Assembly: GCA_026415655.1 (NCBI GenBank)
Contig: JAOAGR010000002.1
Span: forward strand, 131,237-195,236
DNA from: Candidatus Dojkabacteria bacterium
GTDB taxonomy: Bacteria; Patescibacteriota; Dojkabacteria; JAOAGR01
Reading direction: 5' to 3'
Length of the DNA stretch: 64,000 nt
Numbering within the stretch: position 1 is the first letter of the stretch; each line of letters opens with the position of its first letter. Shown piece by piece: positions 2,893-59,542 of the stretch. A program made the translations under genes and the position numbers. The notes under the pieces were generated by a model. That model worked only from the letters and a program-made list of their open reading frames with translations. It made no database searches and was not told the origin of the DNA.

Positions 2893-3318
2893 TTATTCAA
2901 CGATTTCTATACCCATATTTTTGGCTGTTCCTATGACTGTACGCATAGCAGCTTCTATATCTTTCGTATTTAAATCAGGTAATTTTTGCTCTGCTATTTC
3001 ACGTACCTGCGCCATTGTTAATTTACCTACTTTATTTTTGTTTGGTTTATCTGAACCTTTTTCAGTCTTTAGAACTTTTTTGATAAGAGCAGATACTGGA
3101 GGAGTTTTTAGTTGAATATCAAATGTTCTGTCCTCATATATAGTAACTATTGCAGGTACTACAATGTCACCCATATGAGCAGTTTTATCATTGAACTCTT
3201 TTACAAATTGTCCAATATTAATACCAGTCGCACCTAATGCTGGACCTAATGGCGGTGCTGGAGTTGCTTTACCAGCCGGTGCCTGTATTTTTTTTATCAA
3301 CTTTATTTTTTTAGCCAT
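2893..3318 (-). CDS. rplK: 50S ribosomal protein L11
   Basis: The N-terminus MAKKI...IQAPAGKATPAPPLGPALGATGINIGQFVKEFN is diagnostic for L11. Confidence 0.92.
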   Translation of the reverse strand: MAKKIKLIKKIQAPAGKATPAPPLGPALGATGINIGQFVKEFNDKTAHMGDIVVPAIVTIYEDRTFDIQLKTPPVSALIKKVLKTEKGSDKPNKNKVGKLTMAQVREIAEQKLPDLNTKDIEAAMRTVIGTAKNMGIEIVE

Positions 3319-3716
3319 GATAAGGTTGTTATGCGGAAGTATACTATATTAATTAGATTTTGAAAATGTCATGAGTCATATTTTTATAGTATTTTAAATT
3401 AAATCAAGTTTATAGTAATGTAATCTCAAGTATGATCAACTGTAAATTTAATATTTAATAAACTGAGAACTGAGAATGAATCTTGAATGATCTATTTAAT
3501 TAATTATCAAAAATTTAGATATTTTTGGTTGGTGTATAAAAATGGAACTTTAAATTATTTATGATTGTAAATCTAGTTTGCAATATGAATTTTATAAATC
3601 AATTCTTCTGTATTCGTTTGCTCAGATATATTTGATTCGATATTTTCTATAAATTCATCAAAAAATACCTATTTTATTTTATAAATTTTATTCTTTTTAT
3701 ATTTAGTCCACCCTTC

Positions 3717-4079
3717 TCAATATGGTGTTTTTTTATTTTTCTTGTATTTGTCGAAATAAAATTTCAGTTGACCGACGATTTTATTCTTTTTAGGATGCAT
3801 AAATGTGATAATAAAAAATTCTCTAAATTTTTTTATATTTGAAATTAAAATGTTAATTCTGAACTCATTTCGAAATATGTAAATATATTTTTCAAATATT
3901 CCACCTAAACATCCACTCACAGTATCAAATTTGAGATCTGTAAAATTTGCAATTAATCTACATATGAAGATAAAGTGGATTTCAAATATGTGAATCCAAA
4001 CAATGCCTGTATCATAGTTTTTGTGCTTTTTAATTTTAGTCTTTTTCTTATCCGTAGTATTGGGTAATAATCCAGACAA
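3717..4079 (-). CDS. Low-complexity K/I/F-rich hypothetical ORF. Uses a TTG start and may be a degraded remnant.
   Basis: Six-frame ORF only. No recognisable motif. It lies in the approximately 1 kb gap upstream of rplK where nusG/secE are normally found. Confidence 0.2.
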   Translation of the reverse strand: MSGLLPNTTDKKKTKIKKHKNYDTGIVWIHIFEIHFIFICRLIANFTDLKFDTVSGCLGGIFEKYIYIFRNEFRINILISNIKKFREFFIITFMHPKKNKIVGQLKFYFDKYKKNKKTPY

Positions 4080-4300
4080 TAAATCTAATATAGCGTATGA
4101 TTTATATTTGGGATTTGTCGGTATACCACGTTCATCCTTATAACATATTCCTAGAATCGGATGAATTTCTAAATCTTTATGTTTGAAAGAATCCTGATAT
4201 GCTATATAAAAACTGATCGGACATTACTCTTTGCTTCCTCCGCGGCTTTAAGTATCAAATTCAAAATATTCATTTTATTCGTATTTTATATATTAAATGT

Positions 4301-5023
4301 TCATACCTCGCCGGATACTTGTTGCTTTGAGTTAACAATAATAACAGTACCCGTTGGTAAATCAATCCTACCACATTGCATTAATTCGCTGCCGCTCGTC
4401 CGTAACAATTTCAAAGTAACAGTTATAACATTGTTGGGTACATCTATTTCTATGTCTGCATGAGCAAGTGGATGGGATAGTAGACTTGGCAATATAAGGA
4501 GCTTAGCAATGACACTATCAGGTTTATCATGTGTTCCCATATTAGAAATTGCAAACAAAATCGTAGCTGCGGATGGAATAGATCTTCCTAATACATCAAG
4601 GATGTTTTTTATCCAGATTTTGAATCCTATTTCACCCTCATGGCATGATAATGCTCCGAATACAGAAGCTAATGTACTGACTTCATCTGGAGTTGATAAG
4701 CACATAAAAATAGTTCCTTTACATCTATTAGCTCCTTCATTTGGGTGATTACCGCCTTCTTCATTTTGGCGATTACTACCATTTTCCTGTGCATTAGCGA
4801 CTTTGAAGCCTAGAGGGCTATTCATCTCTCTTCTAAATCTAAGAATGTCCTCTTCACTGGCCGATCTCATTTCCCCAATATATTTATCTCCTTCAAATCC
4901 CAATGGACCTATTTGACGCGGATCGGGGATTCGAACCCCTTCATATAATATATAAGTTTTACCAGTACCACGAAAAGCGTCAAGAATCGCACGTTCAATA
5001 TCTTGACTATATGCATGCGACAT
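4301..5023 (-). CDS. Hypothetical protein from a high-GC, atypical-codon family (a paralog of 38276..38773)
   Basis: 240 aa ORF with GC markedly above the surroundings (CGG/GCC/CCG codons). It shares ordered motifs with the 38276-38773 ORF: AYSQDIERAILDAF / SYAIDEQEIARVL; IPDPRQIGPLGF / VPHPCRIVLGPDGISF; FMCLSTPDEVSTL / FTGCSTEDGRNLL; ISNMGTHDKPDSV / AAFGENDSPLACP. Confidence 0.55.
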   Translation of the reverse strand: MSHAYSQDIERAILDAFRGTGKTYILYEGVRIPDPRQIGPLGFEGDKYIGEMRSASEEDILRFRREMNSPLGFKVANAQENGSNRQNEEGGNHPNEGANRCKGTIFMCLSTPDEVSTLASVFGALSCHEGEIGFKIWIKNILDVLGRSIPSAATILFAISNMGTHDKPDSVIAKLLILPSLLSHPLAHADIEIDVPNNVITVTLKLLRTSGSELMQCGRIDLPTGTVIIVNSKQQVSGEV

Positions 5024-5155
5024 ATAATTATATTATATAGTATTTTTTCTGATTTGTCTAATCCTGATAATAATTGGTATCTGTAACATAGCAATAGTTC
5101 TATTAATTATTCTATAGTATTTACTCGATTACGTGTATGCTAAAGATTATAATAT

Positions 5156-5806
5156 TTAATTAATTAAATTTTTAGTGCATATTTCACTAAGTGGACACTT
5201 GTCACAATTTGGTTTTCTTGGATGACAAAAATTTCGCCCTATAAGTATCAATTGTTTTGATATTTTTGTCCAATATTTCTTCGGAATTTTATTCATTAGA
5301 TCTTTTTCTATTTTTTCTGGATTTTTCTCATTCGTGAATCCTAATCTATAAGATACTCTTTTTACATGTGTATCAACAACTATTCCTACAGGTTTATTGA
5401 AGTAATCACATAGTATGACATTTGCTACTTTGCGTCCTACTCCTTTGAGTTTTAATAAATCTTCTATATTGTTCGGCACCTTACCACCAAAATCGGCCTC
5501 AATTATTTTAGCCGTTTCTATGATATGTTTTGACTTTGTCTTGTAATAGTTAATTTCTTTAATAATATCCATAACTTCGGATAAATCAGCTTTTGCAAGT
5601 GATTTATGATCAGGAAAGCGTGCGAATAATTTTGGTGTGACTTGATTTACTTTATTGTCTGTTGTTTGTGCGGATAAAATAACAGCGATTAAAAATTCAA
5701 AAACATTTTTGTGATGTAGAAAATGTGGTACATCAGGGTATATACAATTCAATATTTTTATTATTTTTTTAATCTTATGGTTACTTAGCACATTATAATC
5801 TAGCAT
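5156..5806 (-). CDS. nth: Endonuclease III (DNA glycosylase/AP lyase)
   Basis: LSAQTTD helix-hairpin-helix region, LKGVGRKVANVIL, and the C-terminal 4Fe-4S cluster CHPRKPNCDKCPLSEIC (C-x6-C-x2-C-x5-C). Confidence 0.88.
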   Translation of the reverse strand: MLDYNVLSNHKIKKIIKILNCIYPDVPHFLHHKNVFEFLIAVILSAQTTDNKVNQVTPKLFARFPDHKSLAKADLSEVMDIIKEINYYKTKSKHIIETAKIIEADFGGKVPNNIEDLLKLKGVGRKVANVILCDYFNKPVGIVVDTHVKRVSYRLGFTNEKNPEKIEKDLMNKIPKKYWTKISKQLILIGRNFCHPRKPNCDKCPLSEICTKNLIN

Positions 5807-20567: not shown

Positions 20568-22778
20568 ATGTATAAAAATATTAGATTTTTCAAAAAATTT
20601 AAAAATATTTTTAACTCATTAAACCATAAAGCCTTTTTAATTTTTGTTTTATTGATAATTATTGTTTTGACTGCTACAACTGTGATATTTTTTGCTCGAG
20701 GTAAACAGTATACATATCATACAATTCCACCTATGCAAGACAAAGATAAGAATTTATCCGGTAATGACATGGATAACATAGATAACAATCGTAATAGTGA
20801 AGAGAATCAGCTAAAAAAAGAATTAGAAAAAAAGTTTATAGAAAAATTTGAAACTTATACTGGGTTAGATTGGGAGAAATACTATAAATTTTTGTCCAAT
20901 ACATCTTATATGCTTATAAATTCTTATTTATTTACGGGGGCAGGTGTGTTTCAAGATTCCGATTATACTAATGAAATTATTAGATTATTAAATTATCGTG
21001 ATTCTATTCATGATTATTTCGCACTAAAAAAAACTAATTCAAATCAATTTCGTTATACAAGTTGTAAATTGGAAAGTGTTGATAGGTTAACGATATTGGA
21101 TATGCCGGTTAAAGATTATAATTATTTGTTAAATTATGCACATAATGTTCCTTATATTAATGATTTTAAGGAAGGACTCGAAACAGACTATGCATCCTCA
21201 AATAAATTAGAGCAAATTTTAGGTTCTAATGCTAATTTCAAAGTATTGTCTGGAGTTAATAATTCAATTAATTATGCAAAAGCTGTTTTGTATTCTCTAG
21301 ATTCAACTCAAAGATATACTGTTAATTCAATCAATTTTTATGGTTCAACATATGATCCTTTTAGTGTGAATTATACGGTCGATAAGTATGTGGATGGCCA
21401 TTTTGAGGCTGCGGAATTTTTTAGAGGTAATTATTATTTTTGGTTTAATAGTCCAGAATTAAAATTTGAAATTCAGGATAATAATTATGTACTGATTTAC
21501 GATAAGAATGAAGACTTTTTAAAGGTAAATTACATCTTTGATAGTAATTTTGATCTGAAACAAGTGAATTTAATTGTGCAAAATTCAAACGATCGAGATG
21601 AAAGAATAATTATGTCGGTATCCTGTAATCATGATGTAGTCTCGTTTGATGAAATAAAGACAAAATTTAACCAGATATATTCACAGCTGGAAAATCAGAC
21701 CAATTTCAGATCATATAATTTTGATAATCTTGATGAGGTCAAATATTATAATTTGTCTGAGGTAGTATCAGAATTTCCATTTATTTCAATTAATGATAAT
21801 CCGTTTTTATATCAATTTAATAAAAATAATACCAAGTATGATAAATATTTAGGGGACATTTATAATATACAACTTAAAGGATCGAGAATAAGTCCAATAA
21901 AAATTTCAGAGTCTTCTTCTTTGTATATAAATTCAATAGATTATTCCATATCGTACAACCCAAATGGTGTTGGTTTAATGAACAGTTGTGGTACTTATAC
22001 GTTGTTTTTGGAAGGTTTCGGGAATATAGAGTTGGAATGTAACAAGTTGCATATAGAATTAAGTGAAGAATATAAAAATAGATTGATTAGTGAAAATAAA
22101 AGTTTTCATAGTTATAGGATTAAAACTGATATAAGTAAGAGATTTGGATACCAACCTGCCAATATATACATATACCCAAAATCATATGAAGCTCAAAAGA
22201 AATTAGAAGAAAGAAAGATAAGGTTAAAATTATTAAATACAAATGAGGTTAAAAATTTGGATGAAAAATATAGAAATATAATAATTCATCTATACAATGC
22301 AAATAGAAATCTAGTTTTTAATAATATATCTAAGGAAGAATTAAGGACGAATGTAATATTAAAAAATGATTTTAATACATCCTTTAGTAAACTTTTGGAA
22401 CCTAATGATAAACAAAAAAACTGCTATGCATTTTTTGATAATGTAAATAAATTTGATGTAAAATTGTTTAATGTATTAGAAATTCAAGATATTGAAAGAT
22501 ATTTTCTAAAGTGTGCAACGGGTATATCTAATGGTTATCAAATGATATTACAATATAAAGACAATGATGAGGATTTTTTTGATGTATATGTTATTTACTC
22601 AAATGAATACGTAGAAAAAATTGTCAATTTTTATGTAAATTCTGATTTATACAAAAAAGACCAAAAAATAAGGGGAATGCAATATAAGAAACTTGGTGAT
22701 ATGTATATATTTATATACAGCGACAAAGCAAAAGAAAAGGTAACTGAGGTGTTAAATGATATTCAATTAGTAGAATAG
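20568..22778 (+). CDS. Large type-II membrane-anchored hypothetical protein
   Basis: 736 aa with an N-terminal signal-anchor (AFLIFVLLIIIVLTATTVIFFA). C-terminal region carries a Cys-bracketed motif (SCGTYTLFLEGFGNIELECNKLH) also seen in 23301..25949 and 26529..27335. No known catalytic motif. Confidence 0.6.
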   Translation: MYKNIRFFKKFKNIFNSLNHKAFLIFVLLIIIVLTATTVIFFARGKQYTYHTIPPMQDKDKNLSGNDMDNIDNNRNSEENQLKKELEKKFIEKFETYTGLDWEKYYKFLSNTSYMLINSYLFTGAGVFQDSDYTNEIIRLLNYRDSIHDYFALKKTNSNQFRYTSCKLESVDRLTILDMPVKDYNYLLNYAHNVPYINDFKEGLETDYASSNKLEQILGSNANFKVLSGVNNSINYAKAVLYSLDSTQRYTVNSINFYGSTYDPFSVNYTVDKYVDGHFEAAEFFRGNYYFWFNSPELKFEIQDNNYVLIYDKNEDFLKVNYIFDSNFDLKQVNLIVQNSNDRDERIIMSVSCNHDVVSFDEIKTKFNQIYSQLENQTNFRSYNFDNLDEVKYYNLSEVVSEFPFISINDNPFLYQFNKNNTKYDKYLGDIYNIQLKGSRISPIKISESSSLYINSIDYSISYNPNGVGLMNSCGTYTLFLEGFGNIELECNKLHIELSEEYKNRLISENKSFHSYRIKTDISKRFGYQPANIYIYPKSYEAQKKLEERKIRLKLLNTNEVKNLDEKYRNIIIHLYNANRNLVFNNISKEELRTNVILKNDFNTSFSKLLEPNDKQKNCYAFFDNVNKFDVKLFNVLEIQDIERYFLKCATGISNGYQMILQYKDNDEDFFDVYVIYSNEYVEKIVNFYVNSDLYKKDQKIRGMQYKKLGDMYIFIYSDKAKEKVTEVLNDIQLVE

Positions 22779-25967: not shown

Positions 25968-26369
25968 ATGGAAAGAATAAAATTAAATCAAATGAACAAA
26001 AAATCAATATTTTTAGCAATTGGATTACTGGCTATTTTGGCTATTGGATCAATTATTCTCTATTTATCTTTTTTACAAAATCAAAGTTCATCAGGGGTAG
26101 TATCCGAAAACACCGAATCTGGCAAAATAGATGAAACGAGTGATTCTATTGATGCCAAGCAGACACCGTTTTCGGAATTAGAGAAAACTGATTTTGAGAT
26201 TGATTCGAATCTACGAACAGTGGAAGGTATAAAAGATAATATCTTAAATTATATTTTCGGTGATGAAGAGTTCAGAAATGAGAATTTTTATAGTCTGATG
26301 TCTGATACGATTAATCTAGCATTAATAAATAAGTATGATATTAATGCTTTTGTCCCTCGTTTTGATTGA
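25968..26369 (+). CDS. Type-II membrane-anchored hypothetical protein. Probably the N-terminal part of a single gene continuing into 26529..27335 across an in-frame TGA.
   Basis: 133 aa with an N-terminal TM (IFLAIGLLAILAIGSIILYLSF). Its TGA stop (26367-26369) is followed by 53 stop-free codons in the same frame leading into the next ORF. Confidence 0.5.
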   Translation: MERIKLNQMNKKSIFLAIGLLAILAIGSIILYLSFLQNQSSSGVVSENTESGKIDETSDSIDAKQTPFSELEKTDFEIDSNLRTVEGIKDNILNYIFGDEEFRNENFYSLMSDTINLALINKYDINAFVPRFD

Positions 26370-26528
26370 GCAAAGAAAATAGATGTAACAAATTATGAAA
26401 GAAATTTCATTGAAATAAATTATACTGTTAAGGAAACTAATAGTACTAATTTCAAGTTTAGATGTACACAAGTTTTAAATGTATATTTAATAGCAAATAT
26501 ATGTAAAGACTCAAATGATCGCATTAAT

Positions 26529-27335
26529 TTGGAGAAAAGTGCCCTTCATTTTGTGAAAAAAGCTTCAGACCAGATTAATTATAAATTTGTACAACGAATA
26601 AATGAAAATAATGATAACTACGGATATAAATATATGATTTATCAGTATCCATATTATAATGTTGCACTTTACAATATTTTTCAAGAATATGCTTATATTT
26701 ATGAAAATATTGATGAAGCACTAATAGATAATACTGGGAACAAATTTGTTGTAATGGTAAATATTGATGATGTGCAAATTGTTTACGATCATCCCAAGTT
26801 ATTTGAAAGCAATAATGAAGAAGCGGAGAGATATTTTGATATGATAATAAATGAAATATCAGAACAACAATCTATTGTAAAGGTTGAGGAAAATTATATT
26901 TTTAATATTGATGAATTTGTAAATATGTATCCTGTTTTGGTTCCACAAGGTAAATTTAAAGAATTTGCGTATTTCAGTAATTATAAAATGGGGGTTGCAA
27001 ATATGAATTATGGAGATTCTACCACTATCAGGATTATTCTTGAATTCTACAAGTACGGTAGTCAAGGAAATGAGAATGTAAATTGTTCAGATGAAAACGG
27101 TACAAAACAAATAATTATCGAAGGAAAATCATTTAACGCCAATGTATGTCGAGGTGATAGAATAGCTGGTAATGTAGTAAAGCTTACCAATGTAAAAGGT
27201 TATGATATTTATGTTCAGGCTGTTGATTATTCAATGAATCCTGAAGATAACTCAGTGGATATCATGCCAAGAGAATTTCGCTTTATGACCGCAGATGAAT
27301 CGCCTAAATATGAAATGAAAGTGCAACAATCATAA
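26529..27335 (+). CDS. Hypothetical secreted-domain protein (TTG start as called; same frame as 25968..26369)
   Basis: 268 aa with no signal peptide of its own. Carries a Cys-bracketed motif (NCSDENGTKQIIIEGKSFNANVC) similar to the two larger neighbours. Confidence 0.5.
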   Translation: MEKSALHFVKKASDQINYKFVQRINENNDNYGYKYMIYQYPYYNVALYNIFQEYAYIYENIDEALIDNTGNKFVVMVNIDDVQIVYDHPKLFESNNEEAERYFDMIINEISEQQSIVKVEENYIFNIDEFVNMYPVLVPQGKFKEFAYFSNYKMGVANMNYGDSTTIRIILEFYKYGSQGNENVNCSDENGTKQIIIEGKSFNANVCRGDRIAGNVVKLTNVKGYDIYVQAVDYSMNPEDNSVDIMPREFRFMTADESPKYEMKVQQS

Positions 27336-28619: not shown

Positions 28620-29465
28620 CTAAAAAATCACACAATTTATTTATTGGCAAATAATACCGTAAGATGAACACCAAATAATTAATAACACTAGCTATTGCAA
28701 ATATCTTTTCTGTTCTTTTCGGTGGTATGCCAGCTACTGCTGCTTTAGCTTGAATTTCCTTAAATATAAAATCTGATGTTACTTCAAGAGTATCCGGTAT
28801 TATTAATGTTCTTGGAATAATAATTTCAATGTTTTTCCTGAGTTACTTTCGTTTTATACCCATGGCTGTAATAGTATCTATCCTTGTTTATGTATCTGTA
28901 TAGATGATAGAGAAGGAGCATTTTACTAAACTATATAAATATGAAAAAGAAAGTTTCTTATATCCTTGATCGTTGCTTTTTTCGTTATTATCACTGATCC
29001 GATGATTGGTATTTTATTAGGTGTTTATTTGTTATTACTATTACAGATTAATCGTATATCGAAGGGGATATATGAGATAAGAGAAAATGCATTGTGCGAT
29101 GATGGATCATCGAAAACTATGAAAAAAATCCATCTGTACTTCTTTATTCTTTCAAAGGTAAATTAATTTATATCAATGCAAAGGTACACTTATTACGTTT
29201 TGAAGAAAACTTTGCTAAATATAAAGTTATTATATTTCGTTTTCGAGAGGTATACTATATCGATATTGATGGAATAGAGGCTATAGACGAAATGACTAGT
29301 ATATGTAAATCACGAGGACAGCAAGTAATCTTGACAAGTGTGCCGGATCGAATCAAAAGCTTATTAGTGGAATGTTCGCATTATTACGATGAAATTGAGA
29401 AACAAAATCTAATTTTCCCTAAAACTGAGATGGCCTTACGATTCTTAGGCGTACCAATAAAATAG
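28620..29465 (+). pseudogene. Remnant of a SulP/SLC26-family anion permease. C-terminal TM region plus STAS domain, broken by at least 3 stops/frameshifts; N-terminal half missing.
   Basis: Successive frames read ...ITLAIANIFSVLFGGMPATAALA* (SulP GG-P-T motif), ISLNIKSDVTSRVSGIINVLGIIISMFFLSYFRFIPMAVIVSILVYVSV*, MIVAFFVIITDPMIGILLGVYLLLLL... and STAS-like ...VIIFRFREVYYIDIDGIEAIDEMTSICKSRGQQVILTSVPDRIKSLL... Confidence 0.8.
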
Positions 29466-30015
29466 TAGATAGAATTCTTAATTTAAAAGGATTATCTATA
29501 TATTCAATATAATAATTTTAGAATTTTGAAATGATATACTTTTAATAAGATCAGAAAAATGAACTGATATAAGGTTGCTATTTAACTCTAGAGTGAAGTA
29601 TTGAAGGAGAGGGTTGTATCTTACAGAATATTATTGAGAATATTTTTGTTAAACAAGGTGAATTTCGATATTAAAAGGTTAGGTGCTAATGCATCATGGT
29701 AATGGTAAACACCTTATAGTTATTAATTATCCAATTTTCATAAATAGATTATAGACTTAATGTAATTCGACAATGGGGAATAATATGATTTTTATAAGAC
29801 GTTCCAAAATTATGGGTTGCCAATAACGATCTTAATATATAGTTTGCATCCAAAAAAGACTAAATGATTCTGTTTCCTGGTGATAAACGTGGATTATAAT
29901 ACACAAAATTACTTTATGCGTTAATATTTACGAATTTATTAGTACTGATGTGGTTTGAATCAATTAATTGTGGACATTTTAATATTGTAAATTTTATTAA
30001 AAGTGCTAAACTACA

Positions 30016-31399
30016 TTGATGTCGAATGATAACTACGTTAATCAAATAGTTTCACAGCTACAAGCTGGCATTCCAGAGCAACAAATCTACAACAACCTAA
30101 TAGCTAGTGGAATTTCAAATGATGCAGCCATAAATTTGTTGAATAATGCCAAATATTTGATGTCTTCCATCCAAAATTCGTCTCCTCAGGGATCATCGGG
30201 TCAGTTTAATTCTAATTTTCAGAATAGTGTTCCTAATATGCAATATTCTGGACAACCAGGTCCTAGTCCTGTGAATTTTATGTCGCCTAATTTACAACCT
30301 AATAACCACATTCCAAATAACATTAATTATCCATTGGAAAGCATGAGTTCAAATACTGCAGGAGGATTTGGTATGAATATGCTAATAGTTGGACTTTTGA
30401 TTTTTGGAGTTTTGCTGTCTTTTGTCTCATATCTTGGACTGGCGTTTCCAAACCTAGATTTAAATGGATTTGAACTGTCAAAATTTTTTTGGTTGGTTGG
30501 TGTCTTATCATTAGTATTATTTATCATTCCCTCCGCAATTTTGTTATTCGTTAATAAAAATAAAATATCTAATTTTTTAGTTGTGGTAATAAGTGTGTTT
30601 TTGTCGATGTTTTTGGTACTTGCAAATACAGGTGCTGGGGCATTTTTGTCATTTAGAGATTCTTCTGCACAAAATCAAGAGAACAACACTAATTTGTCTA
30701 AGAATGATGATGAAAAGACGCAAAAAGAGAAAAAAGACGATCAAAAGTCTAACCCTTCACCAACAAATACTCCAAAAAAAAACTCCAACATTCACTCCCA
30801 CTCCTACTCCTACAGCGAGACTTACACCTACGAGAACAGCTCCAATACCAACTCAAGGTCCTGACTATCAAGAATATTTAAATTACTTAGAAAACAATAC
30901 TTATCGTTATACTAATACACAAAATAGATTTTCTTTGAGGATTCTCAATACTTTAAGAAAAGTGTTTACAGATAATACCGATCCTAATAATTACTCAGAA
31001 ACATTTGGTTCTTCTGACGGTAATACATCTTTATCAATTATATATGGTAAAAATCAAAATAATTCCAATGATTTTAGAAATGTATATAGTTTATTGAATG
31101 ATATTGAAGATTCAATAAAATCATCAAATAAGAATCTTGGTGTTACTTGTAATGTTCAAGATGTAAAAGTAGAATATGTTGTTTGTCAGTATGTTACGAC
31201 TCTTCCAAATGGAAAGTATGCATATGTGGTTCAAACTGTTATACCAGATCAGAGAGATTATTCAGGTATTGTTGTGTTGACCGGACTTTTTTTGATACAA
31301 AATCCAGAAGCAGCGGAGAATTTGTTCAATGAAGAAAAATTTGCTTTATTTATAATAAGTATAGGGGTTTATTCAGCTTATACCATTGAATTTAATTGA
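30016..31399 (+). CDS. Membrane/surface protein split by a +1 frameshift at an A9 tract (30774-30782). N/Q-rich N-terminus, TM helices, Pro/Thr linker, C-terminal globular domain.
   Basis: Track ORFs 30016..30864 and 30593..31399. The PT-rich linker ...SPTNTPKK continues as TPTFTPTPTPTARLTPTRT... only in the +1 frame after the A9 run. An A8 allele would give one continuous ~465 aa protein. Confidence 0.6.
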
Positions 31400-32254: not shown

Positions 32255-33331
32255 TTGTTTTGCATTGTGAATAGGCTTTTAATAATAGACATTATTAGGG
32301 GACACTTATTACTTGCTGTAATATGGGATCATCTAGCCTATCTTATAGGACCATCGATCTTTGCTTACTACAATTATTTTGGTCTTTTGTGGGTATCCGC
32401 GGCAGAGGGATTTGTGATTATTTCAGGTTTTTTGTTGGGTTATTTATTTCTATATAAGGGTAGGTATTCAAGCAAAGAGTTTATCAAGATAATTTCAAAA
32501 AGGATAGTGTTATTATACTCAATATCTGTTGTATCAACAATCTTGGTTTCTATCTTTTTTTGGGGCGGAAACAAACTTGAATTAAGTGGAATATGGCGTA
32601 GTAATCGGCCTCGAGAGTTAGATTTTTTTGAATTAGTTTTATATTCGGTGCTTTTTATCCATCACTTTGGTTGGATGGATATTTTTGTGCTTTATGTATG
32701 GTTGTTTTTGATTGCTTTAGCGATACTTCCTATTATGAAAAAGCATAAATTCTCTTATATAATGGTTTTAATTGTCTCTTTTTTGATCTGGTTATTTGAT
32801 AATGTATATCGTTTAGAGTTAAATCTTATACAGGTTAGCTCATTTAGACTTCTATCATGGCAGTTTTTGTTTACTATTAGTTTAGTTTTAGGTATGCATT
32901 TTGAAAGGTTACGAGATATTTTAATCTACTTTTATAAAAAAAATATATTACGCATTTTTGTAATAGTTGCATTTATAATTTTTTTTATTTTGGGAATCAT
33001 ATTTCCATATATGAAGAATGATCTTCTTTTAATTTTATTCTCAAAAGAATTTGTCGGCTTGGGTAGGCTGATTTTATCGTTTTTTTGGTTATATTCTGTT
33101 GGGATAATATTGAAAATTTTGTCTGATAGAATAAATTTCTTGGGTAGTACGTTATCCTACATCGGTAAAGAATCTCTTTATGTTTATGCGGTACATGCCG
33201 TCATTATTACTTTTTTGGATAAAATATTTATTAGTGATTTATTTCTAAATAGTTTATGTGTATTTTTAATAACGATATTTATATATTTCCTTGTTTATTT
33301 AAAACATAAATTTTTGAAAAGATTGGGTTAA
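32255..33331 (+). CDS. Acyltransferase family 3 (Acyl_transf_3/OpgC-like) integral membrane protein
   Basis: N-terminal IDIIRGHLLLAVIWDH matches the acyltransferase-3 motif (LDxLRGxAALxVVxxH). About 10 TM helices, 358 aa. Confidence 0.6.
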   Translation: MFCIVNRLLIIDIIRGHLLLAVIWDHLAYLIGPSIFAYYNYFGLLWVSAAEGFVIISGFLLGYLFLYKGRYSSKEFIKIISKRIVLLYSISVVSTILVSIFFWGGNKLELSGIWRSNRPRELDFFELVLYSVLFIHHFGWMDIFVLYVWLFLIALAILPIMKKHKFSYIMVLIVSFLIWLFDNVYRLELNLIQVSSFRLLSWQFLFTISLVLGMHFERLRDILIYFYKKNILRIFVIVAFIIFFILGIIFPYMKNDLLLILFSKEFVGLGRLILSFFWLYSVGIILKILSDRINFLGSTLSYIGKESLYVYAVHAVIITFLDKIFISDLFLNSLCVFLITIFIYFLVYLKHKFLKRLG

Positions 33332-38049: not shown

Positions 38050-38275
38050 ACAATATCATTTTAGTATATTGTATAAACTATTTGCAGAATATATAACTTG
38101 TTTTTATATTAAATATGTAATGTTATATAAAGATAATATAGCCTTTGTGTAATGTTTATAATGATCAAGATGTAATAGAATTGTGTTATATAAAAATATG
38201 TTAGAGTTATAGTTGATGGGAGAGTAAGGTTGGCACAACTGATTAAATGTATTAGAATACTATACTATGTTTAGT

Positions 38276-38773
38276 ATGCGCGAAGACTTTTCCTACGCAA
38301 TCGATGAACAAGAGATTGCACGTGTTCTTTGACGATCTATAGATTACTCTGTTCCTCACCCATGCCGTATTGTATTAGGTCCTGATGGAATAAGTTTCTA
38401 TGATACCAATCCTAAATCTGTTACACCTGATGGAAGTAATGAGAATGGTAAAATAGAGTTTACTGGTTGTAGTACAGAAGATGGACGTAATTTACTGGAA
38501 TTATTTAAAGTTATGGTGCAATCAATAGCGGCGGGTTATATTCAATTACCAGATTTAAAGGAAGTAAAGGTTATTAGCACTATTGAGGTAGTTGAAGGAG
38601 CATATCTATTAGCATGCGCAGTCGCAGCATTTGGAGAGAACGATTCACCATTGGCATGTCCAGTAAGATATACAGACAGAATAGAAACGTTGTATAGAGG
38701 GTATGAAGTACCAAACACTTATGAGGCCAGGGTAGACAACAACGGATTTATTCTTCATTTAAAGTATAAATAA
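38276..38773 (+). pseudogene. High-GC-family hypothetical gene (paralog of 4301..5023) interrupted by an in-frame TGA at 38330-38332. The track calls only 38513..38773.
   Basis: ATG 38276 gives MREDFSYAIDEQEIARVL, then TGA, then 60 stop-free in-frame codons (RSIDYSVPHPCRIVLGPDGISFYDT...) joining the called ORF. Paralog similarity spans both sides of the TGA. Elevated GC. Confidence 0.55.
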
Positions 38774-40179: not shown

Positions 40180-40371
40180 ATTGTATCAGATTTTCACTTT
40201 TGTATTACAGTGATTGATTTTAAGAGTTTATTATTAAATATAACTTAAATATTCCAATTGTCAGTTAAAAAAGCGCCGTTAATTAGTAATTAAATAATAA
40301 AATTTCTACTGATAAGTATTTATTGGATTATGAAATTTTTATTGATTAAATAGTTAGAATTCAGTGTATAT

Positions 40372-40400
40372 AAAAAAGCATGCCTAAAAAAGGCATGCTC
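40372..40400 (-). terminator. Rho-independent terminator downstream of rplL
   Basis: On the minus strand: GCATGCC-tttttta-GGCATGC followed by ttttttata. Positioned 20-50 nt after the rplL stop. Confidence 0.7.
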
Positions 40401-40421
40401 TCGAAAATATATTTAATTAGT

Positions 40422-40802
40422 TTACTTCAACGTTACTTTTGCTCCTGCTTCTTCTAGTTTTTTCTTGATTTCTTCAGCTTGTTCTTTTTTAACACCGGAC
40501 ATTACAATAACTGGTGCTGATTCAACTTTGGCCTTTGCTTCTGCCAATCCTAGGCTTTGATCAATCTCTCTCAGAGCTTTGATTACATTCAGCTTCTGAG
40601 CACCAATTTCGGTTAATTCCACATCAAATTCGGTTTTTTCTTCTGCAGCTTCTGCTGCTTGTGCTGGTCCTGCCGCAACTGCCATAACAGGTGCTGCCGC
40701 AGTGACACCAAACTTCTCCTCCATTGCTTTTTTTAGCTCTGCAGCTTCTAGCAAGGTTAGAGAAGCGATTTCTTCTAGTAATTTTTGAATTTTCTCTGAC
40801 AT
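40422..40802 (-). CDS. rplL: 50S ribosomal protein L7/L12
   Basis: N-terminal dimerisation helix, Ala/Glu-rich hinge ([22 protein letters not shown]), C-terminal domain ending ...GAKVTLK. Confidence 0.93.
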
Positions 40803-40805
40803 GAT

Positions 40806-41318
40806 TTATTGATTTTGTTTTTTAGCTACTTCTTCTACGAGATATGCAATATCTCTCATCACAGCATTTATAGATCCAACAACACCGCTTGCTCCAGAGT
40901 CCAAAAGATAAAGTATTTTTGCCAGAGTTTGTTCTCTGGATTCAACTTTGGATAATTTGTCTATTTCGGAACCATCATGTAATGTTCCTTCTACAAAACA
41001 GAAGAGATATTCACATTTTTCCTCTTTTTTTAATGCCGCCAATTTTTTGGCAATTTCAACAAAATCATCATAACAAAAAAATACAAATATCGGTCCTTTT
41101 AGATCTAATTTCGTGGATAAATTTTCATCCGCTGCTATTCTAAAAAGTGTATTTTTAATTAGTGTAAAGTAGCAATTCTTTTCTTTCGCGTATTGCTTCA
41201 ATTCATTAGCCTCTTGACCGTTGAAATTGCCTCTAATAGCAAAAATTGCATTAGATTTAGATATAGAATCCTTATAAGTATCTAAAATAGCTGATTTTTG
41301 TTGTCTTGTTTTTGCCAC
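40806..41318 (-). CDS. rplJ: 50S ribosomal protein L10
   Basis: 170 aa L10-like N-terminus, immediately upstream of rplL. Confidence 0.85.
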   Translation of the reverse strand: MAKTRQQKSAILDTYKDSISKSNAIFAIRGNFNGQEANELKQYAKEKNCYFTLIKNTLFRIAADENLSTKLDLKGPIFVFFCYDDFVEIAKKLAALKKEEKCEYLFCFVEGTLHDGSEIDKLSKVESREQTLAKILYLLDSGASGVVGSINAVMRDIAYLVEEVAKKQNQ

Positions 41319-43743: not shown

Positions 43744-44745
43744 TTGTACAGATTTCATAATTTTGATAAAATAGGTACTAATATGACAACGACAGATAAA
43801 AATCAAGATAATCAAAATCTAAATCAAAATCCAGAAACACTAGAGTCACAAATTAATAGTGTGCCAGCCACATCTGGACCAATGGCTGAATCAAACAGAC
43901 CGGATGATGAAATTAATCAAATTAAAACTAAAGTTGCGGATGAAGAATCTCAGGTTATAGGTAAAGATATAGAATCTCCTACAAAATCAACGTCTGATGT
44001 TCAATCAGTTCCACAACAGGAAATAAAAGACGATACAAATACGAATTCATCAGAACAGAGTGCTAAAACTAATGTAAATAACACAAATCCTATAGAAAAT
44101 GCCTCAAATCAAATATCTAATTTTGTAAATGAAACTTTGTCAGGTGTGATGCCTAGCAACCAACAAGGTCAGAATAATCAAAATGAAAAAAACAAAAAGA
44201 TAATTTTGTTCGGTATTGTTATTATTGTTATATTATTAGTATGTTGTATATTGTATGTACTTGGTATAACTGTGTTTAAATCAGCTTATGATGGCCTTTT
44301 TGGCCCTTATGGAAATAAACAACAAGATGTAACGCAGCAAAATGCTAACAACAATAATAAATCAGAAGAGAATGATAATAATGATGACACTAAAATTACT
44401 GGAGAAGACAGGAGGGTAAAAAGAGATTTCGTGAAGATATTTAGCGCATCAGGTGATAGTGGCACTAGTTCATCTACAGAAAGCTTCACTGTTAAGGAAA
44501 AAAAGAATCTCAAGTTTGTAGGTACATACAAAAATGTAAGTAGATTTGGATCTTGTGTTATGACTGTCTTAGTTAAAGGAGTTACAGATCAAACTTATTT
44601 CAGTTATGCTCAAACGGTGGAAATACCTAAGGGTGAGGAAAAGACACACGAATCCATGGTTTATAACGTACCCGGTGGTGAATATTATCTAAATGTAAGT
44701 GGTTATGGGTGTGAGTGGAAGGTTGATGTGTATGAAGCAAAATAA
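43744..44745 (+). CDS. Single-TM membrane protein with a long N/Q/S-rich N-terminal region and a small Cys-containing C-terminal domain
   Basis: 333 aa. Low-complexity Q/N-rich aa 1-150, TM (IILFGIVIIVILLVCCILYVLGITVF), and a C-terminal domain with Cys pairs. Confidence 0.55.
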   Translation: MYRFHNFDKIGTNMTTTDKNQDNQNLNQNPETLESQINSVPATSGPMAESNRPDDEINQIKTKVADEESQVIGKDIESPTKSTSDVQSVPQQEIKDDTNTNSSEQSAKTNVNNTNPIENASNQISNFVNETLSGVMPSNQQGQNNQNEKNKKIILFGIVIIVILLVCCILYVLGITVFKSAYDGLFGPYGNKQQDVTQQNANNNNKSEENDNNDDTKITGEDRRVKRDFVKIFSASGDSGTSSSTESFTVKEKKNLKFVGTYKNVSRFGSCVMTVLVKGVTDQTYFSYAQTVEIPKGEEKTHESMVYNVPGGEYYLNVSGYGCEWKVDVYEAK

Positions 44746-54097: not shown

Positions 54098-55078
54098 ATG
54101 TCTCTAACACGCATAACAGAAAATTTGAGAAAAATGTTTCAAGGTTACTCAGTAGTAAATGTTGCCAGTGCAATATTTGAAATGTTTTCAATCTTGATGC
54201 CATTGTGCTCTCAGAGAGACGATTCATCTGACAATAGATTCGCCTGGACGAGCATAGATATTTATTCTTGCCAACATAGAGATCAAGAAATTAAATTTGA
54301 TGGTGTTAAAAGGATGGGACTATTCCAAAGATTACATGCCGCCGGTATTGCAAGGATAGTATATACGTTAGAAGGATATGGTCCTGCTTTTTTTCATCCG
54401 GCCTTCAGCGTTAAGCCTCCACAACCATCATCAGAGGAAAGTGTTCATAATTATTATCTGTTACTCTATTTTAATCTTGGAATAAAAAATTTTGTGCTTA
54501 GATTTCCTATTGGGACTTTGCATATTGATTGTGGACCAATAAAACAGCTAGAGACCGGTAAATTAATAGAATTGAATCAAGATAGATTAAAAGAATTGAA
54601 TCAAGATAGATTAAAAGAATTATCAGATTTACTACAAGATCAAAGATACGCTGTACAATTAGGAAGAGCAGCAATATTACCTGGATTTAGGCGTAGAAAT
54701 GCTGCTTCTAGGAATCATGCAATGAATGTAAATGGTTCAGATACTGGTAATATTTATCAAAAAGTAGGAAGGTTTGTGCAATCATTATTAATTGATATTT
54801 CTTCGTCACAACCACAACAAATATTCATAGTTTCACTTATAAATAAAGGTAATCAAGGTTCTTTGAGTGGATTCAAGAGAGTAGTAAGGGCAGCATTAAA
54901 TCTACAAACTGATGATGGTTTTGATAATTACATATATGCATTGCAATCACCTGAAATACCGTATTCTTATAGACATTTTATGAGATATTTTAGTGATATT
55001 AATATACTTGCTGTTCCCAGTCGTACAGTGAATCCTTCACAACATGAACAAACTAATGTCTCTACCAACATTACATAA
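54098..55078 (+). CDS. Hypothetical protein with elevated GC; contains a 24-bp tandem duplication and may be distantly related to the high-GC family
   Basis: 326 aa. Internal repeat ELNQDRLKELNQDRLK encoded by tandem 24-mers. Weak resemblance (QEI...YTLEGYGPAFFHPAF) to YILYEGVRIPDPRQIG of 4301..5023. Confidence 0.45.
   Translation: MSLTRITENLRKMFQGYSVVNVASAIFEMFSILMPLCSQRDDSSDNRFAWTSIDIYSCQHRDQEIKFDGVKRMGLFQRLHAAGIARIVYTLEGYGPAFFHPAFSVKPPQPSSEESVHNYYLLLYFNLGIKNFVLRFPIGTLHIDCGPIKQLETGKLIELNQDRLKELNQDRLKELSDLLQDQRYAVQLGRAAILPGFRRRNAASRNHAMNVNGSDTGNIYQKVGRFVQSLLIDISSSQPQQIFIVSLINKGNQGSLSGFKRVVRAALNLQTDDGFDNYIYALQSPEIPYSYRHFMRYFSDINILAVPSRTVNPSQHEQTNVSTNIT
54569..54622 (+). repeat. Perfect tandem duplication of a 24-bp unit (gaattgaatcaagatagattaaaa x2, plus a partial third)
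   Basis: Seen directly in the sequence. In-frame (8-aa ELNQDRLK repeat) inside the 54098..55078 ORF. Confidence 0.9.
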
Positions 55079-55094
55079 ATATGATTATAATTGA

Positions 55095-57452
55095 TTGATG
55101 GAAATATTTTTTTTTGTGTTATATGTGTCCATTATATTGTTTGAGGCATTTATTTTATTCATTTTGCGAAACTATGTTGAACGAAAATTTTATAAATTTG
55201 TTTTTTATTTTATATCTTTTCATATATTGTGGATGGCATCTGTTTATCTATTTTTGGCAACACATTTTTTGTCCAATTATTCGGAAGTTATAGACTATAT
55301 AAAAGGAATTCCGCATGCTTTTGGATTGCTTGCTATTTTTTTTGTTTATATTTTCCTATACAATATATCACTAAAAACCATCCACGGAATTAAGTTTTTT
55401 ATAATAACAAATCATTATATAATTATTATATTTACTTTTTTTAATTTTGTTATATGCTTATTCACGGATAATATAATTCAAGAAATTGATATAAACAATA
55501 CAAAACCAATATTTGGTCAACTATATTTTTTTTATATATTAAATGTGATTTATATATTAATTGTAAATATCATTATTGTTATATCTTCTATGGTTTTTAG
55601 TGTAAAAAAAAGTTTTTATACATACATCATATTGGGGTTGTTATTATCAGTTACTTGGGCTGTTATTACTAATTTATTTATACCTGTATTATTTCGGACG
55701 TCGTCTTATTCCTTATTAGGTCCTCTTGGGATTACTTTCTTTCTTTTCTCTGTATACCAAGCATATGTAAAAACGAAACTTTTATCACCAAGTACTATTT
55801 TAAAAAAGATTTTAATATATTCGATTATATCGATTTTTTCATATACAGTGTTTTATCTAGTCGCTTATATGGAAACTGTATTTTTTGGCTCTATATTTAG
55901 TCGAGAGGCGTATTTGTTTGGTATTTTAGTTGCTCCAACATTCGTGATTTTTTACGAACTTATTAATAGATCAATATATAGGTTCCCTTTGATCTTTCCA
56001 AAAGGTGTTACCACGAAAAATTATGTAGATGAATTTGCAATCACTATAAAATTGTCTCAGAATTTTGATAGAATAGAAACCAATCTAGACAATATACTTT
56101 CTATCTTAATTAATACTAATGAATATAGTATTATAATAACAGGACAATATATCTTTAATTCATTAAATACATCTCGTATTAAATTTGATCCAAATTGGGA
56201 CAAGAAACTTATTTTTTTTAAGGCAAAGAAGGAAATTATGAACCAATTATATGTTGTAAAAGATATAGTACAATTGGGCATTAAATATAATACTGATAGT
56301 TTGGCTTATTTGATAGATCACATGAACAAAAATAATTATGTAATATTTGGAATTTTCGGTGATGAATATGTCAAAATATGTATTTTTTTAGGGAGTAAGG
56401 ATAGATTTGACATAAATATTGAAATATTAGATCTATTATCGAAAGTAATGCACAATACTGCGGAAACAATATCGAAGATTGTCTTAAATGAAATTTTCAG
56501 AAAAAGACTGTTACTATTAAAGAACTCTATGTCAATTTTTATAGAAAAAGAAAAAGAACAAATAAAGATCGTACAAGAAAAATATCAGAGAGAAAAAGAT
56601 ATGCTTGGTATCATTGGTCATGAACTTAAAACACCTTTAACTGTTGCCAGGGGCAATATGGAGTTTTTATATGATAAAGTAATGAATGCGAATTCTATTA
56701 TTGAACTGGATCTTGATTATCTAAAAAAGAAAATAGATAAAATATTCAAGTCTATTTCAAAAGAAATTGATTTGGTACAAACTTTACTTAGCTCAGGGCA
56801 TGTAGAAAATGATAAAATCAGTTTTCAGTTTTCTCTTTTCAATTTTCTTGATGTTGTTGATTATTCGTATGAGCTATTTTCAGATGATGGTATAAGAAAA
56901 GGATTATGTGTAAATTATGAGAAGCCAACTGATTATGAAAATTATATTGTATTTTCCGATCAATCACGACTTTTAGAAATTACCAATAATCTCATTTCCA
57001 ATGCAATTAAATATACAGATAAAGGTGGGGTTGATATATTGATATCTCAAGATGGTGAAAGGATAATATTTAAAGTAAAGGATACTGGAAGAGGAATACC
57101 AAGGCATTTGCTTCATAAAATAGGACAAAAGTATTTTAGGATAGATCAGTATGGTAAGGGCAGCGATGACGCTAATGTTGTGCGTTCGGGAGGAACTGGA
57201 CTTGGTATATATGTAATTAAAAACATCTTAGATGCGATGGGTGGTAAATTAAATATAGTAAGCGAATATGGTGTTGGATCAACGTTTACTGCCTATATAC
57301 CAAAAGATGTACCAAACTATATAGCATCAAGAATTAATGATCTTGGATTTATGACTACAAATCCACTGGCAGTAAAGATATTTCAAGAAATCAAAGTATA
57401 TAGTGGAAAGGGTTCAAATATCACACAAACAACCCAGTCTCCGCAAATATAA
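55095..57452 (+). CDS. Sensor histidine kinase with a large polytopic N-terminal membrane domain (orphan; no response regulator in the window)
   Basis: About 10 TM helices in the first ~300 aa, HisKA H-box HELKTPL, and HATPase_c N/G1/G2 boxes (ISNAIKYT, DTGRGIP, GGTGLGIYVIKNILDAMGG). Confidence 0.85.
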   Translation: MMEIFFFVLYVSIILFEAFILFILRNYVERKFYKFVFYFISFHILWMASVYLFLATHFLSNYSEVIDYIKGIPHAFGLLAIFFVYIFLYNISLKTIHGIKFFIITNHYIIIIFTFFNFVICLFTDNIIQEIDINNTKPIFGQLYFFYILNVIYILIVNIIIVISSMVFSVKKSFYTYIILGLLLSVTWAVITNLFIPVLFRTSSYSLLGPLGITFFLFSVYQAYVKTKLLSPSTILKKILIYSIISIFSYTVFYLVAYMETVFFGSIFSREAYLFGILVAPTFVIFYELINRSIYRFPLIFPKGVTTKNYVDEFAITIKLSQNFDRIETNLDNILSILINTNEYSIIITGQYIFNSLNTSRIKFDPNWDKKLIFFKAKKEIMNQLYVVKDIVQLGIKYNTDSLAYLIDHMNKNNYVIFGIFGDEYVKICIFLGSKDRFDINIEILDLLSKVMHNTAETISKIVLNEIFRKRLLLLKNSMSIFIEKEKEQIKIVQEKYQREKDMLGIIGHELKTPLTVARGNMEFLYDKVMNANSIIELDLDYLKKKIDKIFKSISKEIDLVQTLLSSGHVENDKISFQFSLFNFLDVVDYSYELFSDDGIRKGLCVNYEKPTDYENYIVFSDQSRLLEITNNLISNAIKYTDKGGVDILISQDGERIIFKVKDTGRGIPRHLLHKIGQKYFRIDQYGKGSDDANVVRSGGTGLGIYVIKNILDAMGGKLNIVSEYGVGSTFTAYIPKDVPNYIASRINDLGFMTTNPLAVKIFQEIKVYSGKGSNITQTTQSPQI

Positions 57453-57481: not shown

Positions 57482-58927
57482 ATGGATAGTGGAAGATTGG
57501 TAGATATATCAAAAAATTCTAACAATATTATCTTTATATTGCCAGAATTTGTCACTATAGACGTAGTTTCTGCTACATTACTTTTGGCAAGATTTTACAA
57601 AAATAATGGTAAAGAAGTCACCTTGGGGCATTCAGGTAAATTGGGCAAATATGCGGAGTATCTGATTGAATATGCTGGATTTAAGGTATCCGATATTAAA
57701 AAATCTATAGATCCAATATCTTATGTGGTGAAGATTAAAGATTTAAATGATCAGGTTTATGTTGGATATAAACAAGTTGATGATATTTTAGAAATATACG
57801 TAACCCCAGAAAATAAGGCTGTGGACTTTTCTAAAATAGTTTACACAAAAACCGGAGGAATATATGATACAAATATTTATTTAGGTTGTTCCGATATATC
57901 TGTTTTGGGAAGTATTTATACAGATTTTGCTGCAAAATATGAAAAATTTAATAATATACCAATAAATAAGAATAATTCTGACATAACATTGGCAGAATTC
58001 GTTTGGGAGTTAATAGTTTCAGAGGGTGCCCATTTTAGCGAAATTGATGCTAAACTGGTTGCTTATGGAATAATTTTCGGCACTAGATTTTTGCAAAATA
58101 TCCGATCAAATAGTACTTATAAATTTATTGAATCCTTACAGTCCATATATAAAATAAACTTAACAGAGATTATCAGTAATATATATGGTGATGATCTGGT
58201 TTATAAACTGAGGAAAAAAGTATATTCAAAAGCTGTGTTAGATAATGTGCGAAAAGCTGTCTATGTTTTAGTAAATACTGATGAACTCGAAAATATGGAT
58301 ATTGATCTTTTATTTTCTTTTTTCGTACTTTCTGATGGAATAAACACGATACTGGTAGAAATTGATGAGAAGTCTCTTTATTTTATCACAAACCGTAGTG
58401 ACCTAATTAATTTTAAATCACAGATAATTATCGATGGAATTAATTATATTTATCGTGAAAAATCGCACGAAGCATTGACCGACGTTATGAATTTTATATC
58501 TTATGGATTTAGTATTGCCCAGAATCAGGTAGTTGAAGACACAAAAAGTGTTGTAGAAGAAAATAAAGTATTTCAACAGTATTCGAGTATAACGCCAAGT
58601 ACATCTCAAACCCAAAACATAACAGATACAAAAACCAATTTTAATTATCACTCAGTTGATCAAACAGCACCACAACATATTTCTGAAAATACTGCGAACA
58701 TATATGATCATAGTTCATTTACGACACAATCGAATTCATTTAATAACCCATCCTATTCTTCAAATAATACCTCTGGATATGGCGCTTCAAATATATCAAA
58801 TAACAATCAGGCTAATGATCAAAGTCCTCCTTTTGTACCATCAAACGAGGTAGTCATAGATCCGAATGCAAAGCCATATTATGTACCAAATAGTTCTACT
58901 GCTTCTCCTTTTCAAAAGGCAAATTAA
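57482..58927 (+). CDS. Hypothetical protein, possibly a degenerate DHH/DHHA1 (NrnA-like) fold, with a Q/N/S-rich C-terminal tail
   Basis: N-terminal IIFILPEFVTIDVVSATLLLARFYKNNGKEVTL parallels the NrnA N-terminus (H-PDGDALGS...LGKEV) but lacks the DHH catalytic residues. About 100 aa low-complexity S/N/Q tail. Confidence 0.4.
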   Translation: MDSGRLVDISKNSNNIIFILPEFVTIDVVSATLLLARFYKNNGKEVTLGHSGKLGKYAEYLIEYAGFKVSDIKKSIDPISYVVKIKDLNDQVYVGYKQVDDILEIYVTPENKAVDFSKIVYTKTGGIYDTNIYLGCSDISVLGSIYTDFAAKYEKFNNIPINKNNSDITLAEFVWELIVSEGAHFSEIDAKLVAYGIIFGTRFLQNIRSNSTYKFIESLQSIYKINLTEIISNIYGDDLVYKLRKKVYSKAVLDNVRKAVYVLVNTDELENMDIDLLFSFFVLSDGINTILVEIDEKSLYFITNRSDLINFKSQIIIDGINYIYREKSHEALTDVMNFISYGFSIAQNQVVEDTKSVVEENKVFQQYSSITPSTSQTQNITDTKTNFNYHSVDQTAPQHISENTANIYDHSSFTTQSNSFNNPSYSSNNTSGYGASNISNNNQANDQSPPFVPSNEVVIDPNAKPYYVPNSSTASPFQKAN

Positions 58928-58981
58928 GAGATATTTACATCTTTGGAAAAAATGTCTATTCTATTATTAGAATAGACGCAT

Positions 58982-59542
58982 ATGAGTCGATCAAAAAATA
59001 ATAATCAAAAAGAGAATCTTATTTATGATTTGGTAGATTTGTCTTTGATTCCAGCCTTTCTTTTGATTCTAGCTAAAGTTGGGGGTATTGCTTTTTTAAA
59101 TTGGATTTTGAATTTGGATTGGAGAATAGTTCAGGATAACGGTTTGTTTATTAGTTTTAAGTTGACCTATCCCACCTTAGAGCAAGTTGTAATTGTTAAT
59201 TCATACTCAAATCTTTTTATGTATATTTGTATACTTGCGGGAGTTATGGTAGTTACTTCAAAGTCGATGCTTTTGAATCATAAAAAGGCTTCGCCATATC
59301 TTGTCTTGAAACTTGCAAAAATGGACTTGCTACATCTTTTGCAGACATCAATCAAAATTTACAAGGAAGTATTTGTATGGATATTATTTTTGATTGTTAC
59401 GACTGTTTATATATTCATATCATTCTTGTTAGAACTTAATTATGCTTGGATAGCTGGATTAACATTAGTAACAACTTTAGTCATTTTGTGGATTATCATA
59501 CAGAATATCGAAGAAGATGTTTTGTATACAAAATACAAGTAA
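58982..59542 (+). CDS. Polytopic membrane protein (4-5 TM)
   Basis: 186 aa, hydrophobic helices throughout. Confidence 0.5.
   Translation: MSRSKNNNQKENLIYDLVDLSLIPAFLLILAKVGGIAFLNWILNLDWRIVQDNGLFISFKLTYPTLEQVVIVNSYSNLFMYICILAGVMVVTSKSMLLNHKKASPYLVLKLAKMDLLHLLQTSIKIYKEVFVWILFLIVTTVYIFISFLLELNYAWIAGLTLVTTLVILWIIIQNIEEDVLYTKYK

Follow-up and report, generated by a model that had tools for sequence, protein, structure and literature searches.

The window analysed here, a 64-kb stretch of DNA from a Candidatus Dojkabacteria bacterium with a GC content of about 31%, carries on its plus strand two overlapping reading frames whose relation to one another turns on a single homopolymer. Positions 30770-30789 read CTCC-AAAAAAAAA-CTCCAAC, where a run of nine adenines occupies exactly 30774-30782, and the codon register across the tract is ACT CCA AAA AAA AAC TCC. 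Only two homopolymers of 9 nt occur in the window, this A9 and a T9 at 55107-55115, and the A9 is the longest A run. The reading frames 30016-30864 and 30593-31399 are both present, the second lying in the +1 frame relative to the first; the former opens with TTG, its real start being the ATG at 30019. A preliminary description of this DNA had placed the A9 at the same coordinates, as the sequence confirms, and had reported an overlap of the two frames, which indeed exists, with a length of 272 nt rather than the 270 nt given there. In the NCBI annotation the locus appears as two hypothetical proteins, MCX8034868.1 (N3A71_01090, 281 aa) and MCX8034869.1 (N3A71_01095, 145 aa), the latter called from an internal GTG. 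The features on which the analysis draws are the following.

25968..27335, plus strand: neighbouring gene for a membrane-anchored protein of 455 aa, function unassigned, with a nonsense substitution private to the window at 26368 (TTA>TGA, L134*)
30010..30011, plus strand: two adjacent polymorphic bases, 9 and 8 nt 5' of the ATG, for which the assemblies show three alleles; the A at 30010 is private to the window
30019..31399, plus strand: interrupted single gene for a predicted envelope protein of 459 aa, whose intact product is encoded on six sister contigs
30019..30864, plus strand: truncated product of 281 aa (P0005), comprising the predicted three-helix N-terminal domain, an N/Q/P-rich stretch, three transmembrane (TM) helices and part of a charged linker
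30774..30782, plus strand: A9 homopolymer, A8 in all sister assemblies
30783..31399, plus strand: continuation in the +1 frame, a Pro/Thr linker followed by the putatively extracytoplasmic C-terminal domain, which in the window allele has neither a start codon nor an export signal of its own
30966, plus strand: S316F (TCT>TTT), non-synonymous and private to the window, downstream of the frameshift; Ser in P0001, P0002 and P0016

When one A is removed from the tract, the two frames merge into a single frame of 460 codons encoding a 459-aa protein, and the junction reads SPTNTPKKTPTFTPTPTPT, exactly the seamless join that the preliminary description had predicted for A8 (the continuous-frame junction can also be written SPTNTPKKTPTFTPTPT). 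In this intact form the codons at the tract are CCA AAA AAA ACT, that is Pro-Lys-Lys-Thr, and the eight adenines are nucleotides 756-763 of a 1380-nt gene, about 55% along and hence mid-gene rather than 5'-proximal. With nine adenines the product acquires 27 out-of-frame residues (NSNIHSHSYSYSETYTYENSSNTNSRS) before a TGA ends it.

The intact form is not hypothetical. Of 5.8 billion proteins searched by a word index, three matched: P0001, P0002 and P0003. P0001 (459 aa) is 100% identical to the repaired window protein by BLASTP rounding, S316F being the sole difference, and is encoded on five contigs, among them Logan SRR27730038 and SRR27730018 and ENA ERZ3623746; a variant with five substitutions, P0006, is found on a contig of SRR34265295. 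Altogether the intact A8 gene is present on six contigs from at least four samples, with 99.83-99.92% identity to the window; apart from the A run, no indel separates their copies of the gene from that of the window. Over 7.4 kb the window and L001-L003 are 99.92-99.93% identical, with the A8/A9 difference as the single gap. The products of the A9 allele itself, P0004 and P0005, are on record for the NCBI metagenome-assembled genome (MAG) only. The claim that one extra A splits a single gene is thereby borne out by the intact 459-aa form in six near-identical contigs.

More distant relatives tell the same story. The orthologues P0002 (461 aa, 62% identity) and P0003 (460 aa, 57%) are unsplit, and dN/dS between the three orthologues, estimated by the Nei-Gojobori method, lies between 0.19 and 0.43 on the 5' side of the tract and between 0.13 and 0.31 on the 3' side. 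Since both values are low, both halves have been subject to purifying selection and have been kept as coding sequence, as expected for one real gene. The tract itself is less constant: the orthologue of 62% identity (L004) has A8 at the corresponding site, while L005 reads CCC AAG AAA ACA there, where a synonymous AAG interrupts the run and the PKK motif is kept. The comparison with related genomes that the preliminary description had called for thus yields intact A8 genes in the six sister contigs and intact genes in the distant orthologues too. A fixed pseudogene, for which it had named split orthologues as the mark, is excluded by these relatives, and an old, decaying pseudogene is likewise ruled out by the single lesion and by the openness of the remainder of both frames. 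As a separate matter, P0002 and P0003 (L004 and L005) form a mosaic, with dS of 0.03-0.28 in the N-terminal/TM half and about 0.8-1.0 in the linker and ectodomain, a pattern which suggests recombination near the linker that would have swapped ectodomains between lineages.

By the searches made here the gene family is tiny and lineage-restricted. An exhaustive HMMER profile scan of 1.84 billion representatives gave four matches, two of which were weak and confined to the linker, the others being the query cluster and P0016, a fragment of the C-terminal part. Public genome and metagenome contig collections, searched by protein alignment and for the invariant KYAYVVQTVIPDQRD motif written as degenerate DNA, returned none, species and family being absent from both.

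What kind of protein is interrupted? Pfam assigned no family at E ≤ 0.01, the best matches, at about 0.09, being unrelated. The full-length AF2 model has a pLDDT of 43, with low confidence outside an N-terminal three-helix domain (residues 1-52, pLDDT about 70); it continues with a disordered region rich in N, Q and P, followed by three long helices between residues 116 and 221 that correspond to TM segments, and by a disordered charged and Pro/Thr-rich linker. Modelled in isolation, the C-terminal 180 residues (30857-31396) reach a pLDDT of 77 and a pTM of 0.75 and form an alpha/beta sandwich that can be superposed on PsbP or Mog1 structures, so that on the evidence of the model the domain has a PsbP/Mog1-like alpha/beta fold. 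The three TM helices together with a Lys-rich loop between TM2 and TM3 suggest an N-in, C-out topology, from which we infer that the three-helix N-terminal domain is cytoplasmic, that the Pro/Thr-rich stalk follows the three TM segments outside the cell, and that the PsbP/Mog1-fold domain is extracytoplasmic. The surface or membrane protein of the preliminary description is thus upheld in its predicted TM helices, its Pro/Thr linker and its globular C-terminal domain.

We compared this domain with other extracytoplasmic proteins of the PsbP/Mog1 fold, namely CyanoP (2xb3), M. tuberculosis LpqN (6e5d), MTC28 (4pws), Salmonella DcrB (6e8a) and BT_1490 (3hlz), many of which are membrane-tethered or secreted envelope proteins. 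Sequence identity to them is 5-14%, and the anchoring differs: in place of a lipobox there is a three-TM module, with a helical domain predicted on its cytoplasmic side. Judging from the modelled fold, the ectodomain probably binds something.

Is the ninth adenine real? The organism could truly be A8 and intact, the extra A having entered the consensus by mistake where the region has its longest A run. The A9 is seen in one consensus assembly, and the longest A run is the likeliest site for an indel error, homopolymers being the classic place for them. Moreover, every other assembly of the species carries A8, the products of A9 are recorded for the NCBI MAG alone, and the gene has no other disabling lesion apart from the tract. 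Against this stands the general quality of the assembly, for which the sister assemblies, whose alignments span essentially the whole 64-kb window, served as a control. The other 20 A/T runs of at least 8 nt, including the T9 at 55107, show no difference in length from any sister assembly spanning them, outside a few recombinant or repeat-variable patches. Since all 20 are invariant, the MAG assembly is not prone to homopolymer error. Apart from the A9, a one-base indel specific to the window occurs only once, within a pair of adenines (AA) at 43759 that precedes the start of a gene.

Furthermore, the MAG is a genetically distinct lineage with SNPs of its own. Nine variants are private to the window within 21423-42213 (20.8 kb), and three of them fall in the interrupted gene, namely 30010, which lies 9 nt before the ATG, the frameshift, and S316F. 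Finding at least three of nine in 6.7% of the region has a p of about 0.02 by a binomial estimate, a rough one resting on few events. The gene thus carries two private changes besides the frameshift, and the stop codon that a private substitution has created in the neighbouring envelope gene is a kind of change that assemblers do not typically introduce. Private 1-bp indels also occur in the sister lineages at roughly one per 20 kb in each, one of them reproduced on six separate contigs, and at this rate a single private indel in the window matches real divergence. In the light of these controls we regard consensus error as rather unlikely, though a substantial alternative, and we consider it probable that A9 is a real allele of one kind or another, whether through loss of function, as a switch or by recoding. 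In a low-coverage ENA assembly (about 3.8x) a change from A7 to A6 at position 22414 splits a 736-aa gene (20568-22778, plus strand) into 625 and 104 aa, and this A6 may either be a genuine allele or stem from the low coverage.

The explanation that we favour, and hold to be somewhat better than an even bet, is that A9 is a real, recent and strain-specific loss-of-function allele, generated by slippage in one normally intact gene. Replication slippage would have added one A to an ordinary A8 tract of codon-bias origin (CCA AAA AAA ACT) in the lineage of the MAG. Translation would then stop 27 codons past the tract, and the entire extracellular domain would be lost. The gene is unusually variable among near-identical strains, and it would seem to be dispensable or under changing selection. 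Reversion from A9 to A8 would be possible in principle.

Loss of function need not be complete. On runs of nine A or T, slippage by bacterial RNA polymerase is efficient (PMC5009743), and transcripts with one A fewer or two A more would restore the frame, the latter at the cost of one additional Lys, so the A9 allele would be expected to leak and may be hypomorphic rather than null. There is a close parallel in Blochmannia and Buchnera, where poly(A) frameshifts are rescued in about 30% of transcripts (PMC3017870); there, as here, a low-GC reduced genome carries a single poly(A) indel in an otherwise intact gene (PMC3017870; PMC5009743). The two cases differ in that some of the frameshifts of Blochmannia and Buchnera are conserved across populations or species and their rescue was shown on cDNA, whereas the present one is private to one assembly.

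Genes in decay do exist in this genome. Between tRNA-Ser and the interrupted gene, at about 28660-29465 on the plus strand, lies the decayed remnant of a SulP-family transporter, common to the sister strains. It has several frame breaks, and an ORF of 57 aa is the only one called in the region; when three frames are stitched together, the C-terminus of Sulfate_transp is matched at E = 7.7e-11 and STAS at E = 1.2e-5.

We now turn to the variation in which the frameshift is embedded. Tallying variants over 20.8 kb in six assemblies, with one recombinant patch excluded, gave about 36 events, 9 of which fall in the 1.4 kb of the interrupted gene compared with about 2.4 expected (p about 1e-3 by a Poisson estimate, again rough with so few events). 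The interval of the gene had been set by the preliminary description before the variant data existed. All six coding SNPs in the gene are non-synonymous and none is synonymous, which is not significant taken alone, about 78% of random changes being non-synonymous; an excess of non-synonymous changes is also expected at such short divergence. Five of the six are private to one assembly, L010, and are clustered within 245 bp of the ectodomain, and these five variant events could reflect a single episode. Mutagenesis of the DGR type can be rejected for this cluster, the changes (G>T, A>T, A>T, C>T, C>T) not being adenine-specific. Import by recombination is also unlikely, all five being non-synonymous, in contrast to the entirely synonymous import seen in L009 (ERZ3623746), where a recombinant patch at 40262-40926 over the L7/L12 and L10 genes contains seven coding changes.

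The neighbouring envelope genes vary as well. The 455-aa gene, which is no paralogue of the interrupted one, has lost one base at 26539 in the SRR277300xx lineage and one at 26123 in SRR34265295, each loss disrupting it, and is intact only in ERZ3623746; together with the nonsense substitution in the window this makes three independent knock-outs in three lineages. The deletion at 26539 is a real allele, since its 195-aa product is found on six separate Logan contigs. An OpgC/acyltransferase-3 gene (32255-33331, plus strand) is intact in the window and carries V145M and Q203* (32861 C>T) in ERZ3623746 (L009) and SRR6344962 (L012). By contrast, several housekeeping genes of the same interval, those for IlvE, CysRS and sigma-70, are free of variants.

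These observations invite a broader interpretation, in which the frameshift belongs to a hotspot where envelope genes change in parallel among near-clonal strains. The cause would be strong and fluctuating selection at the cell surface of this CPR bacterium, for example from phage receptors or from host attachment, and the A8 tract would act in practice as an OFF switch, reversible and transcriptionally leaky, for the exposed PsbP-like domain. We offer this with considerable reserve and think it unlikely as a whole: the variation in the envelope genes, drawn from few events, fits fluctuating surface selection and relaxed constraint alike.

Other parts of the window vary between strains in ways of their own. 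A hypervariable gene of 326 aa (54098-55078, plus strand) is dense in SNPs and is split into 92 and 185 aa in SRR34265295; it contains a 24-bp tandem repeat (54562-54621, 2.5 copies) whose copy number differs between assemblies, and a (CAA)n tract near 54813 that varies by 0-15 nt between assemblies, mostly in multiples of 3. Between rplK/rplA and the gene for an HhH-GPD glycosylase lies a strain-variable cassette (2923-5363), the core of which (3368-5168) cannot be aligned with L006 and L007 and is flanked by SNP-dense segments at 2923-3367 and 5169-5363. A patch at 58338-59539, directly upstream of pilin-like (N_methyl/GspH) genes and covering the 3' end of a 481-aa gene and the whole of a 186-aa gene, is about 10% divergent from all five sister assemblies and, from this divergence, looks like the import of a different allele by recombination. 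Between the enolase and CysRS genes, a 165-aa ORF (38274-38771, plus strand) has two non-synonymous changes private to the window, a nonsense mutation and a 4-bp deletion in ERZ3623746, and M53I (ATG>ATT, 38432) in SRR34265295, where it is called as 52 and 86 aa; it may not be a real gene. A scan of the window for promoters and terminators gave 41 promoter-like sites, with 51.5 expected, and Rfam found tRNAs only.

Could the tract be more than a site of accident, namely a selected, hypermutable switch that is ON with A8 and OFF with A7 or A9 and thereby controls a surface protein? Several features speak for a contingency locus of this kind. As in such loci, a repeat tract inside the ORF sets the frame, in with A8 and out with A9; the product is an envelope protein with a predicted exposed domain (three TM helices, a Pro/Thr linker and a PsbP-like domain, in the topology inferred above), encoded by a variant-rich gene, and the surrounding locus is rich in variation of an ON/OFF type across strains. 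The A8 at the homologous position in L004 points in the same direction. A close precedent is available in vaa of Mycoplasma hominis, which is ON with A8 and OFF with A7 or A9 and switches at a rate of 1e-3 to 1e-4 (Zhang & Wise 1997, summarised in PMC524362). The likeness extends to an AT-rich reduced genome, a surface gene and a poly-A tract inside the ORF that is in frame with A8 and out with A9. The vaa tract, however, is described there as lying near the 5' end, with switching measured, whereas the present tract is mid-gene, predicted by codon bias and not found in all orthologues, and the proteins are unrelated (PMC524362). A second precedent is inlA of L. monocytogenes, whose hypermutable poly(A) tracts mutate at about 1000 times the rate of point mutation (PMC2831843). 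Here too natural strains carry a one-base change in poly(A) that truncates a surface protein and is reversible in principle; but the inlA frameshifts arose independently in different lineages, with documented recurrence and a 5'-proximal tract, as against one occurrence in one MAG in our case (PMC2831843).

The evidence from the tract itself weighs against a dedicated switch. Among seven assemblies there is a single length change, one A9 against six A8 contigs, which amounts to one event on the strain tree. Sense-strand A runs of at least 8 nt number 14 in 53.7 kb of coding sequence, no more than the 16.1 ± 2.7 obtained after synonymous-codon shuffling. Lys is encoded by AAA in 80% of cases and Pro most often by CCA, and with these preferences Pro-Lys-Lys-Thr is written with A8 by default. 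Neither enrichment nor conservation of the tract is thus observed, its frequency being that of shuffled codons and the run being broken in L005 while PKK stays. Being at 55% of the gene, moreover, the tract would in its OFF form still yield a 281-aa membrane protein. Finally, the knock-outs in the neighbouring genes are nonsense substitutions and deletions outside repeats, which argues for general selection or relaxation rather than for a dedicated repeat switch. The contingency locus of the preliminary description is, in view of the codon-bias origin of the tract, its interruption in L005, its position at 55% and the one length change, unsupported, and we consider it improbable. A literature search on frameshifts in Dojkabacteria returned nothing relevant.

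Programmed recoding, by which the gene would be read through the A run through +1 ribosomal frameshifting or obligatory transcriptional slippage to give both truncated and full-length products, has in its favour that A9 is slippage-prone (PMC5009743) and that the two frames join seamlessly, but it is extremely improbable, and programmed frameshifting is rejected, given that a single frame encodes the protein both in the orthologues P0002 and P0003 and in the six sister contigs with their in-frame A8 alleles, that the 88 nt 3' of the tract hold no RNA structure (MFE -5.5 kcal/mol, z = +0.45 relative to shuffles), and that the shift needed is +1 or -2 and not the usual -1 on A AAA AAA.

Returning to strain-specific loss of function as the preferred explanation of the A9 allele, a practical consequence is that N3A71_01090 and N3A71_01095 should be annotated as a single gene, frameshifted or mis-assembled. 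In its intact form this gene represents a small, lineage-restricted envelope family with a PsbP/Mog1-like ectodomain. The frameshift is ordinary in kind; modest interest is added by its setting, a cluster of knocked-out envelope genes in nearly clonal CPR strains. More generally, these near-identical CPR strains, which come from different samples, differ mainly in that a few envelope genes are knocked out or altered in amino-acid sequence, the signature that would be expected if contact with phage or host drives surface variation in episymbiont-like bacteria.
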